Source: Escherichia coli (GTDB taxonomy: Bacteria > Pseudomonadota > Gammaproteobacteria > Enterobacterales > Enterobacteriaceae). From it: a stretch of DNA of 64,000 nucleotides. Shown piece by piece: positions 40,146-43,088 of this stretch (position 1 is the first letter of the stretch; each line of letters begins with the position of its first letter). The DNA lies in the NCBI RefSeq assembly GCF_051903065.1, contig NZ_CP178438.1; one strand, written 5' to 3'. Both the position numbers and the translations under genes were made by a program. The notes under the pieces were generated by a model. It saw only the letters and a program-made list of their open reading frames with translations. It did not search any database and was not told the DNA's origin.

Positions 40146-40852
40146 TCGAACTCGTGATTGTATCGCGTCTCCTTGAATATCCGGATGCTGCCTTATGGCA
40201 GCATCAACAAGAGATGTTTGAGGCGATTGCCGCGTCGAAAAATCTGCCAAAAGAGGATGCCCATGCGCTGGGCATTTTCCTGCGCGATTTAACGACGATG
40301 GATCCGCTCGATGCCCAGGCGCAGTACAGCGAACTGTTCGACCGTGGCCGCGCCACGTCACTGTTGCTGTTTGAACATGTGCACGGCGAATCCCGCGACC
40401 GCGGCCAGGCGATGGTGGACCTGCTGGCGCAGTACGAGCAGCACGGCTTGCAGTTAAACAGCCGCGAATTGCCGGACCATCTGCCGCTGTATCTGGAGTA
40501 CCTGGCGCAGCTACCGCAAAGCGAAGCCGTGGAAGGTTTGAAAGATATCGCGCCGATTCTGGCATTGCTGAGCGCGCGTCTGCAACAGCGTGAAAGCCGT
40601 TATGCCGTGCTGTTTGATCTGCTGCTGAAACTGGCGAATACCGCTATCGACAGCGACAAAGTGGCGGAAAAAATTGCCGACGAAGCGCGCGATGATACGC
40701 CGCAGGCGCTGGATGCTGTCTGGGAAGAAGAGCAGGTTAAATTCTTTGCTGACAAAGGCTGCGGTGATTCAGCAATCACTGCTCATCAGCGTCGCTTTGC
40801 CGGTGCCGTCGCGCCGCAATATCTGAATATCACCACCGGAGGACAGCACTAA
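40142..40852 (+). CDS. narJ: nitrate reductase assembly chaperone NarJ
   Basis: 236-aa ORF; 4-nt overlap with narH. Confidence 0.95.
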
Positions 40853-41529
40853 TGCAATTCCTGAATATGTTCTTCTTTGATATCTACCCGTACATAGCCG
40901 GGGCGGTCTTCCTGATTGGTAGCTGGCTGCGTTATGACTACGGGCAGTACACCTGGCGCGCGGCGTCCAGCCAGATGCTGGATCGCAAAGGGATGAACCT
41001 GGCGTCGAACCTGTTCCATATCGGTATTCTGGGGATTTTTGTCGGTCACTTCTTCGGTATGCTGACGCCGCACTGGATGTATGAAGCCTGGCTGCCGATT
41101 GAAGTGAAACAGAAAATGGCGATGTTTGCTGGTGGTGCCAGCGGCGTGCTGTGTCTGATTGGCGGCGTACTGTTGCTTAAGCGTCGTCTGTTCAGCCCAC
41201 GCGTGCGTGCAACCACTACCGGAGCGGATATCCTGATCCTGTCGCTGCTCGTTATCCAGTGCGCGCTGGGCCTGTTGACCATTCCGTTCTCCGCCCAACA
41301 TATGGACGGTAGCGAGATGATGAAACTGGTTGGCTGGGCGCAGTCGGTGGTGACCTTCCACGGTGGCGCTTCTCAACACCTCGATGGTGTGGCGTTTATC
41401 TTCCGTCTACACCTGGTGCTGGGGATGACGTTATTCCTGCTGTTCCCGTTCTCGCGTCTGGTACACATCTGGAGCGTACCGGTGGAGTATCTGACACGTA
41501 AGTACCAGCTGGTGCGCGCTCGTCACTAA
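40852..41529 (+). CDS. narI: respiratory nitrate reductase A gamma subunit (cytochrome b)
   Basis: 225-aa polytopic ORF; start overlaps narJ stop. Confidence 0.96.
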
Positions 41530-41549
41530 GCGAATTTTAGTTCACATAG

Positions 41550-41574
41550 ACCCTGCTTCGGCGGGGTTTTTTTA
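41550..41574 (+). terminator. narGHJI intrinsic terminator
   Basis: Stem ACCCTGC/GCGGGGT with UUCG loop followed by T7. Confidence 0.6.
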
Positions 41575-41593
41575 TGGGCACGGTGCGGGGTGA

Positions 41594-41675
41594 GTTGTCG
41601 GATGCGCTTCGCTTATCCGACCTACAGGGGAGGATATTGTAGGTCCGGTAAACGCGGTGCCATCGGGCAAAATTA
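41594..41675. repeat. REP/BIME-like extragenic palindromic element
   Basis: GTCGGATGCGCTTCGCTTATCCGACCTACA resembles the REP consensus; inverted copy of GACCTACA / TGTAGGTC 11 bp apart. Confidence 0.5.
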
Positions 41676-41712
41676 GCTCGGAGTAACAGGTTTTGAGTAT
41701 TTCAGGAAGTAA

Positions 41713-41882
41713 TGGTGGTGGGGGAAGGATTACTAGCGCTTCGCCCTTCGGGTCGTTGCCTGCGGCAACGCTTTCTCGCTGGCGCTCGAGTCGAACCTTA
41801 GTCGAAGCTTCTCATCCTTCCCCGCTTGGGCAGAATATTTAATTACGGATTCGTTTGAGAGTTCAGGGACTTTTGAAAGTGA
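41713..41882 (-). repeat. tyrT-operon 3' repeat unit (rtT/tpr region), ending in a 19-nt copy of the tRNA-Tyr 3' end
   Basis: TGGTGGTGGGGGAAGGATT at 41713-41731 repeats the tRNA 3' end about 170 bp downstream of tyrV; only about one unit is present here. Confidence 0.6.
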
Positions 41883-41967
<85 letters not shown>

Positions 41968-42001
41968 AGGGGTAATTCAAATTTCGAGGTAATGCTTGAG
42001 A

Positions 42002-42086
<85 letters not shown>

Positions 42087-42135
42087 ACGGGGTAATGCTT
42101 TTTACTGGCCTGCTCCCTTATCGGGAAGCGGGGCG

Positions 42136-42164
42136 CATCATATCAAATGACGCGCCGCTGTAAA
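42136..42164 (-). promoter_or_regulatory. tyrT promoter (-35 TTTACA, 16-bp spacer, -10 TATGATG, GC-rich discriminator)
   Basis: Minus strand reads TTTACAGCGGCGCGTCATTTGATATGATGCGCCCCGCTTCCCG, placing +1 about 41 nt upstream of the mature tRNA 5' end. Confidence 0.8.
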
Positions 42165-42245
42165 GTGTTACGTTGAGAAAAATGAACTGGTTGCGTAATT
42201 TTCATCCGTAACGGATTAAAGGTAACCAGTTATTTTTGCTGGCGA

Positions 42246-43088
42246 TTAAAGAATAATCGTCCGATTACCGTAAACAAAGACGCGCTGCGCCAGTACTTTG
42301 TAGAGCGCGCGACTTAAGACGTTTTTCTCGACGTCACGACCTGCACGCATCATATCTTCAGCTGTGTAGGTATGATCGACATGAATAACGTCCTGCATGA
42401 TGATTGGGCCTTCGTCCAGATTGTCATTAACATAGTGAGCTGTTGCGCCAATAATCTTCACGCCACGTTCATAGGCCTGGTGATAAGGACGTGCGCCGAT
42501 AAACGCTGGCAGGAAGGAATGGTGAATATTGATGATCTTATTCGGGAAGCGTGACACAAATTCCGGTGTTAATACCCGCATATACTTCGCCAGCACCACG
42601 TAGTCAGGTTGATAAGCATCAATGGCATCCGCCATCTTTTGATCGTGCTCGTTGCGGCTTAACCCTTCATGGCTTACCAGCTCAAACGGTATATCAAAAC
42701 GCTCAACCAGAGAACGTAAAGTATCGTGGTTACCAATCACTGCCGCGATTTCGACATCCAGGCCGCCGTAATTGGCTTTCATCAACAAATCGCCAAGGCA
42801 ATGCGCTTCTTTAGTGACCAGAATCACTATCCGGCGACGACCGGCAGGATTCAGCTCACGCACGGAGCCTTCTGGCAATGCGCTATCGAGATCCGCCAGC
42901 AGGGTGGAATCATTAAAAATCCCTTCCAGTTCCGTGCGCATAAAAAAGCGCCCGGTACGGTGATCAACAAATTCATTGTTCTGTACGATATTTAACTCGT
43001 GCTTGTAGCAAATATTGGTAATACGTGCGATCAGACCTTTTTGGTCCGGACAAATAGTACGCAGAACTTTACGTTGGAGTGAATGCAT
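42246..43088 (-). CDS. purU: formyltetrahydrofolate deformylase
   Basis: 280-aa ORF MHSLQRKVLRTICPDQKGLIARITNICYKHELNIV (ACT domain plus formyltransferase domain). Confidence 0.96.
   Translation of the reverse strand: MHSLQRKVLRTICPDQKGLIARITNICYKHELNIVQNNEFVDHRTGRFFMRTELEGIFNDSTLLADLDSALPEGSVRELNPAGRRRIVILVTKEAHCLGDLLMKANYGGLDVEIAAVIGNHDTLRSLVERFDIPFELVSHEGLSRNEHDQKMADAIDAYQPDYVVLAKYMRVLTPEFVSRFPNKIINIHHSFLPAFIGARPYHQAYERGVKIIGATAHYVNDNLDEGPIIMQDVIHVDHTYTAEDMMRAGRDVEKNVLSRALYKVLAQRVFVYGNRTIIL

Follow-up and report, generated by a model that had tools for sequence, protein, structure and literature searches.

The 178-bp repeat array of the Escherichia coli K-12 tyrT locus, said to comprise '3.14 repeats', was reportedly described by Egan and Landy in 1978 and by Rossi et al. 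in 1981, and Altman et al. are said to have named tpr as a gene within it in 1981 (Cell 26:299). Among the K-12 annotations carried by these repeats are the RtT RNA (Rfam RF00391; rttR, b4425) and the 'protamine-like protein' gene tpr (b1229). To our knowledge, modulation of the stringent response is the sole role that has been proposed for RtT in the literature, and we know of no sponge activity or base-pairing target for it, unlike 3'ETS-leuZ, which we take to be a functional RNA cut from a tRNA precursor. The two are alike in description, each being a stable RNA that originates in a tRNA operon, from its spacer or its trailer. That the tyrT primary transcript yields a stable RNA is known for K-12 only, through citing papers, and the stringent-response proposal dates from 1991, as quoted in a preprint (bioRxiv 10.1101/2024.07.17.603846). 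In a biofilm and motility screen, overexpression of RttR had no effect (PMC4606813), and a 2025 paper lists 3'ETS-leuZ among its sRNAs and places rttR among REP-associated sRNAs (PMC12306157). The tpr entry of the Keio update reads merely 'predicted protamine-like protein'. A literature search for evidence of Tpr translation yielded database-style mentions only, and a phrase search for literature on polymorphism of the locus yielded nothing relevant.

The window analyzed here is a stretch of 64,000 nucleotides of E. coli DNA (contig NZ_CP178438.1), in which the tyrT locus lies between narI and purU; the features of the region are collected in Table 1. A sequence-only reading of this DNA had placed the region in the distal part of the tyrT operon, a placement that is borne out. 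Positions 41500-42250 (751 nt) are 100% identical to E. coli ECNB21-M121 (NZ_CP083585.1), in whose RefSeq (PGAP) annotation the element after tyrV is labelled 'RtT sRNA, processed from tyrT transcript' and tpr is not annotated. The promoter-like site precedes the 5' end of tyrT by ~50 nt and, from this position and prior knowledge, is presumably the tyrT promoter. A scan of the window found no intrinsic terminator on the minus strand after RtT, and termination at the tyrT operon of K-12 is Rho-dependent according to the older literature. The short spacer between the two tRNA genes is without the diverged 175-nt RtT-like unit that K-12, BL21, C, and HS carry at this site. On the narI side of RtT, the REP-like sequences form an inverted pair, GTCGGATGCGCTTCGCTTATCCGACCTAC and GTAGGTCCGGTAAACGCGGTGCCATCGGGCA, with a BIME-like look.

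Table 1. Features of the tyrT region in the window.
Feature	Position	Strand	Basis or detail
narI	40852-41529	plus	terminator at 41548-41569
REP-like pair	~41590-41665		between narI terminator and RtT
tpr-like frame	41702-41815	minus	ATG 41813-41815; TAA codon 6 at 41798-41800; next in-frame stop 41702-41704
Distal repeat unit, 170 nt, beginning immediately after the CCA of tyrV and ending with that of the tRNA-end copy	41713-41882	minus	direct repeats, K-12 comparison, module parsing
RtT RNA core (Rfam RF00391)	41713-41836	minus	full-length covariance-model match
Exact 19-nt copy of the 3' end of tRNA-Tyr	41713-41731	minus	direct-repeat family D2
Length-difference site relative to the 178-nt unit	41734-41740		pairwise alignments
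tyrV-position tRNA-Tyr(GTA)	41883-41967	minus	ARAGORN; Rfam
tyrT-tyrV spacer, 34 nt	41968-42001	minus	module parsing of 21 loci
tyrT-position tRNA-Tyr(GTA)	42002-42086	minus	ARAGORN; Rfam tRNA 53.4 bits; annotated tRNA-Tyr in identical NZ_CP083585.1
Promoter-like TTTACA-16 nt-TATGAT, TG before -10	42137-42164	minus	consensus scan, 10/12 matches
purU	42246-43088	minus	

Exactly one distal unit follows tyrV in the window; there is no second head-to-tail copy and hence no tandem array. This agrees with the single repeat of ~170 bp, ending in a mimic of a tRNA 3' end, that had been read from the sequence, the mimic being the 19-nt copy AATCCTTCCCCCACCACCA, so that the unit is flanked on both sides by tRNA-Tyr 3'-end sequence, that of tyrV itself (41883 onwards) and that of the copy. 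The RtT core within the unit matches all 130 positions of the RF00391 model, scoring 118.9 bits where the gathering threshold is 45 (E = 1.2e-25), with every consensus pair formed and zero non-canonical pairs flagged in the cmscan alignment; its closing helix is made by CCUUCCCC, within the tRNA-end copy, paired with GGGGAAGG. Its location is likewise that of RtT, in the tyrT operon, 3' of a tRNA-Tyr gene and on the same strand, with a copy of the tRNA 3' end at its terminus. The element is the known and already annotated RtT sRNA. It is present as a rare length variant, whose exact unit was found in 3 of 5426 complete E. coli genomes, and as a single copy, an arrangement that several other sampled strains share. 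Within the core, two adjacent motifs at 41788-41810 on the minus strand, AAGCTTCGACT and AAGGTTCGACT, resemble the tRNA-Tyr T-arm AAGGTTCGAATC (direct-repeat family D3). Descent of the core from a decayed tRNA-Tyr copy was also considered and is unsupported, the global alignment beyond the shared 19 nt scoring about the same as shuffled sequences (z = 1.2).

In E. coli K-12 MG1655, three 178-nt units follow tyrV, in line with the number given in the sequence-only reading, and a fourth, diverged RtT element occupies the tyrT-tyrV spacer, which is 209 nt long. All four are detected by Rfam, with scores of 133-138 bits, the spacer unit at 2064-2195 of the extracted locus (L001). The RtT element of the window resembles the K-12 RtT RNA in the full-length model match, the site after tyrV, the strand, the 19-nt copy, and the helices; the annotated rttR starts 7 nt past tyrV and ends at the CCA, and the surroundings of this 5' end are identical in the window. 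The locus differs in having a unit of 170 nt rather than 178 nt, in having one copy rather than three, and in having none in the tyrT-tyrV spacer. With the classical 178-bp repeats, it shares units bounded by the tRNA 3' end, the first of them directly after tyrV, but has a single unit and no array, a one-unit state that is common to E. coli B, C, and HS. Pairwise alignment resolves the 8-nt shortening into two deletions, one of 1 nt and one of 7 nt, the larger lying between direct AGCGC repeats. The 1-nt deletion is also present in OkiPb01695, whose single unit likewise has TAA at codon 6 of the tpr-like frame, and the 7-nt deletion occurs by itself in two other strains, in the final unit of each. 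Together, the deletions take away a small hairpin, AGCGC-GCA-GCGCU, and the K-12 tpr stop codon, at a cost of ~10-18 bits in Rfam score (119 versus ~128-137 for other units) and with no consensus pair lost.

The K-12 gene tpr is a reading frame in the tyrV-adjacent unit, and the frame in the window has the same start, position, and phase, with 26 of the first 27 sense codons giving the same residue. Translation from 41815 confirms what had been read on the minus strand, namely an ATG opening MRSFD, then TAA, then an arginine-rich continuation in frame. It had been proposed that codon 6 be checked against reference tpr, and it proves to be CAA in K-12 and TAA in the window. Relative to K-12 tpr, the window carries a C to T change that makes codon 6 a stop, a G to A change at codon 15 (GAG in K-12, AAG at 41771-41773; E15K), and an 8-base shortening close to the 3' end, because of which the frame overruns the K-12 stop. 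An uninterrupted 29-codon Tpr frame is not present in the window, owing to the TAA at codon 6 and to the 3' frameshift that results from the deletion. The 7+1-nt deletion, E15K, and the missing RtT-like unit between tyrT and tyrV had gone unnoticed in the sequence-only reading. The bases of the window at codons 6 and 15 are those of the family majority, and those of K-12 tpr are the minority ones; K-12 itself has TAA at codon 6 in its unit 2 and TGA at codon 10 in its unit 3. The suggestion that the strain bears a tpr-like ORF with a premature stop holds insofar as the frame is that of K-12 tpr with TAA in place of CAA; it does not hold as a case of gene loss, TAA being present in K-12 unit 2 and in 107 of 153 elements of the wider family.

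The arrangement of the locus was surveyed in 20 sampled E. coli genomes, picked for structural spread and not at random (21 loci parsed). The tyrT locus is made up of modules that each end in TCCTTCCCCCACCACCA, these being a tRNA gene, a spacer unit of 175 nt, a tRNA gene together with a 34-nt gap, and distal units of 178 nt, and the 20 genomes possess one or two tRNA genes, zero to two spacer units, and zero to three distal units. Two closely spaced tRNA genes followed by one distal unit are found in the window, H19, GmF067, and strain 779, and one distal unit occurs in other combinations in BL21(DE3), C, HS, and OkiPb01695. The three-unit state of K-12 is only one allele among several arrangements. 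Across 5426 E. coli genomes, the number of places with an RtT unit ranges from 0 to 9 per genome and has a median of 2 where any is found; ~730-1150 genomes, depending upon the query used, are without RtT, and about 730 have no match to the tpr-like frame. Units in E. coli are 95% identical to one another. These searches of E. coli genomes placed 14-18 RtT-like matches on plasmids rather than chromosomes.

Several of the sampled loci display additional differences. RtT is absent from two of the sampled genomes, CCUG 73778 and AVS0970 (L012 and L013), in which fatty-acid/sterol desaturase genes, and not narGHJI, adjoin the tRNA-Tyr genes. At the tyrT locus, AVS0970, L005, L016, and L019 each have one tRNA-Tyr gene instead of two. 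Insertion sequences are present between narI and RtT, near REP-like sequences, in two loci, an IS4-family element in L006 (1-1105) and an IS621 (IS110-like) element in L007 (329-1309).

In E. coli strains, the tpr-like frame is often closed. Among 31 distal units from 16 of the other genomes in the sample, it is open in 13, stopped by TGA at codon 10 in 11 and by TAA at codon 6 in five, and one codon short in two; BL21(DE3), HS, C, H19, an O157:H7 strain, and OkiPb01695 have no open frame. When exact 90-nt alleles were counted among the 5426 complete genomes, the closed allele with TGA at codon 10 was found in 2646 records, the K-12 open allele in 2029, and an open F4L allele in 579; the two main open alleles together therefore account for at most 2608 of the 5426 genomes, an approximate ceiling in which rarer open variants are uncounted.

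A scan across species, using one genome per species and a fixed 27-nt pattern in which the first base of codon 6 was left free, detected 153 RtT-like elements at 97 Enterobacterales loci (Citrobacter, Enterobacter, Klebsiella, Salmonella arizonae, Kosakonia, Serratia, and others), with the pattern itself forcing a conserved look on codons 1-5 and 7-8. Codon 6 is TAA in 107 of these elements, CAA in 40, and GAA in six. An ATG followed by at least 25 open codons is found in only 22 of the 153, among which there are two different downstream frames, and in 61 of 116 aligned elements a loop that is 1 nt shorter shifts the frame. Column entropy at codon positions 1, 2, and 3 is 0.45, 0.37, and 0.47, respectively, with no three-base periodicity. 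The stretch that is shortened in the window is length-variable in other genera as well, with 4-nt and 7-nt gaps (alignment columns 101-112). Conservation of the Tpr frame among relatives, as expected of a protein family, was therefore not found; neither Pfam nor NCBIfam holds a model for a Tpr family, and PGAP makes no tpr call in 18 RtT-bearing genomes other than K-12. The frame being unconserved in the family, the reference gene b1229 is itself doubtful on this comparative evidence.

The same scan gave some observations on copy number and distribution. Five-unit tandem arrays of RtT-like elements are present in Enterobacter ludwigii (L085 1615-2430, period 167 nt) and Leclercia adecarboxylata (L094 2088-3238), and thus copy-number expansion is not peculiar to E. 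coli K-12. Outside the Enterobacterales, two typical RtT units were found in a locus labelled Chryseobacterium sp. 18061 (L095), which probably reflects contamination or mislabelling, and a poor match to the RtT pattern was found in a Cellvibrionaceae MAG (L042).

The RNA structure of the element is conserved. When the Rfam RtT structure is imposed on the alignment of 116 sequences, 99.1% of positions assigned to pairs can pair, versus 40-56% when the partners are slid, and compensatory changes are observed at six RtT pairs. Column entropy is three times lower in paired than in unpaired columns (0.19 versus 0.59), and helix 1, the closing helix that includes the tRNA-end copy, is 99.7% paired. 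The AAGG that precedes the ATG of the tpr-like frame, together with the U of the AUG, lies inside this closing helix. An invariant G is the partner of the first base of codon 6, the pair being U-G in 83 sequences and C-G in 32, and the C of codon 10, which is T in the TGA alleles, also pairs with a G. As either C or U at these two positions keeps the pair with G, both 'nonsense mutations' are structure-neutral C-to-U changes. Variation tracks RNA pairing and not codon position. Single-sequence folding was uninformative (z = -1.9 for the window RNA and -1.1 for K-12), and the structural argument is carried by the comparative pair counts. The TAA in K-12 unit 2, the family-majority TAA, the frame-shifting indel, and the switch from G-C to G-U together indicate that the conserved object is the RtT RNA and not a Tpr protein, the tpr frame very probably being a by-product of the RNA sequence.

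If, instead, tpr were a real gene for a 29-aa arginine-rich protein, then the window would contain a loss-of-function allele, inactivated by the nonsense change at codon 6 and by the 3' frameshift. Such a reading draws on the match of frame position and start to annotated b1229, on the frequency of open alleles in E. coli, and on a 1981 paper, present as a reference in PMC11623569, in which tpr was called a gene. Against it stand the interruption of two of the three K-12 units, the lack of any open copy in BL21, C, and HS, which are laboratory and commensal strains, a TAA majority at codon 6 across the 97 loci of other species together with an indel that shifts half of the elements, the missing codon periodicity, nonsense changes that are both C to U with the pair to G kept, a start codon within a 99.7%-paired helix, and the absence of a Pfam or NCBIfam family and of PGAP calls. 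We consider a functional Tpr protein lost from this strain to be very unlikely; the frame in the window is probably not the remnant of a lost gene, as comparison with relatives finds it broken in most of them too. Even smaller is the chance that the single unit is an assembly artefact into which several 178-nt repeats have collapsed. Short-read assemblies can indeed merge tandem repeats that are 95% identical, but the 751-nt arrangement is reproduced without a mismatch in a complete genome, the exact unit is present in three complete genomes, one-unit arrangements are found in the well-finished BL21(DE3), HS, and C, and collapse would not produce the private 7+1-nt deletion, all of which leaves this explanation with next to no probability.

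It could also be supposed that a shortened RtT in one copy is a functionally altered regulatory allele, in which lower dosage and the lost 3' hairpin would affect, for example, the stringent response. The range of 0 to 9 RtT places per genome, the loss of AGCGC-GCA-GCGCU from the window, and an Rfam score below that of other units are in keeping with this idea; on the other side, the many E. coli genomes (~730-1150) without any RtT make it clear that its dose is not critical, length variation of the deleted stretch is seen between genera (the 4-nt and 7-nt gaps), and RttR overexpression was without effect in the biofilm and motility screen (PMC4606813). An altered allele of this kind is unlikely. 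Bolder proposals, in which RtT units are mimics of the tRNA 3' end and their copy number and allele tune a dosage-dependent activity, such as one directed at tRNA-end processing enzymes or at the stringent response, or in which the open tpr allele encodes a micropeptide that only some strains possess, so that the rare window allele, with its single copy, lost hairpin, and closed frame, would represent a natural hypomorph, are highly improbable.

The region is, very probably, the 3' trailer of the tyrT-tyrV tRNA operon with one copy of RtT, the tpr frame being a by-product of the RNA. Under this explanation, the unit would be co-transcribed from the tyrT promoter within the tRNA precursor and presumably cut out during tRNA maturation. 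The tRNA-end copy, including its CCA, pairs with GGGGAAGG and closes the long conserved stem structure, as comparison of the aligned sequences shows, and trimming of the 3' end to CCA, as in a tRNA, may then leave a predicted stable RNA of ~163 nt (41875 to 41713), by analogy with the 171-nt K-12 RNA. Differences in module number have probably arisen by unequal recombination between the tRNA-end copies that bound every module. The window allele differs further by a 1-nt deletion and a 7-nt slippage deletion, both within a stretch of the RNA that varies in length. Some observations sit less comfortably with this explanation. In E. coli, open frames of 29 codons are no rarity (13 of 31 sampled units; 2029 genomes with the exact K-12 allele), which might reflect weak selection, but recent duplication of units that are 95% identical, together with gene conversion between them, accounts for the frequent open frames equally well. 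Translation of tpr in K-12 is possible, and the 8-nt shortening removes the small hairpin and brings the Rfam score down to 119 bits.

The locus is a textbook example of a polymorphic tRNA operon trailer, and as ordinary, annotated biology it matters little in itself. The lesson is one of annotation, in that K-12 tpr is best viewed as a frame that is open by chance in one unit of a structured RNA repeat and not as a conserved gene. Since the frames of tpr, and of ychS on the opposite strand, ride on repeats, 'premature stops' in them should not be counted as pseudogenes in strain comparisons. K-12 ychS (b1228; L001 1410-1685, plus strand) starts with MVVGEGLL, which is the antisense of the tRNA-3'-end copy, and spans RtT units 3 and 2; it looks likely to be a by-product of the repeats of the same kind as tpr. 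The ychS remnant in the window amounts to 29 aa only (41712-41801, plus strand).
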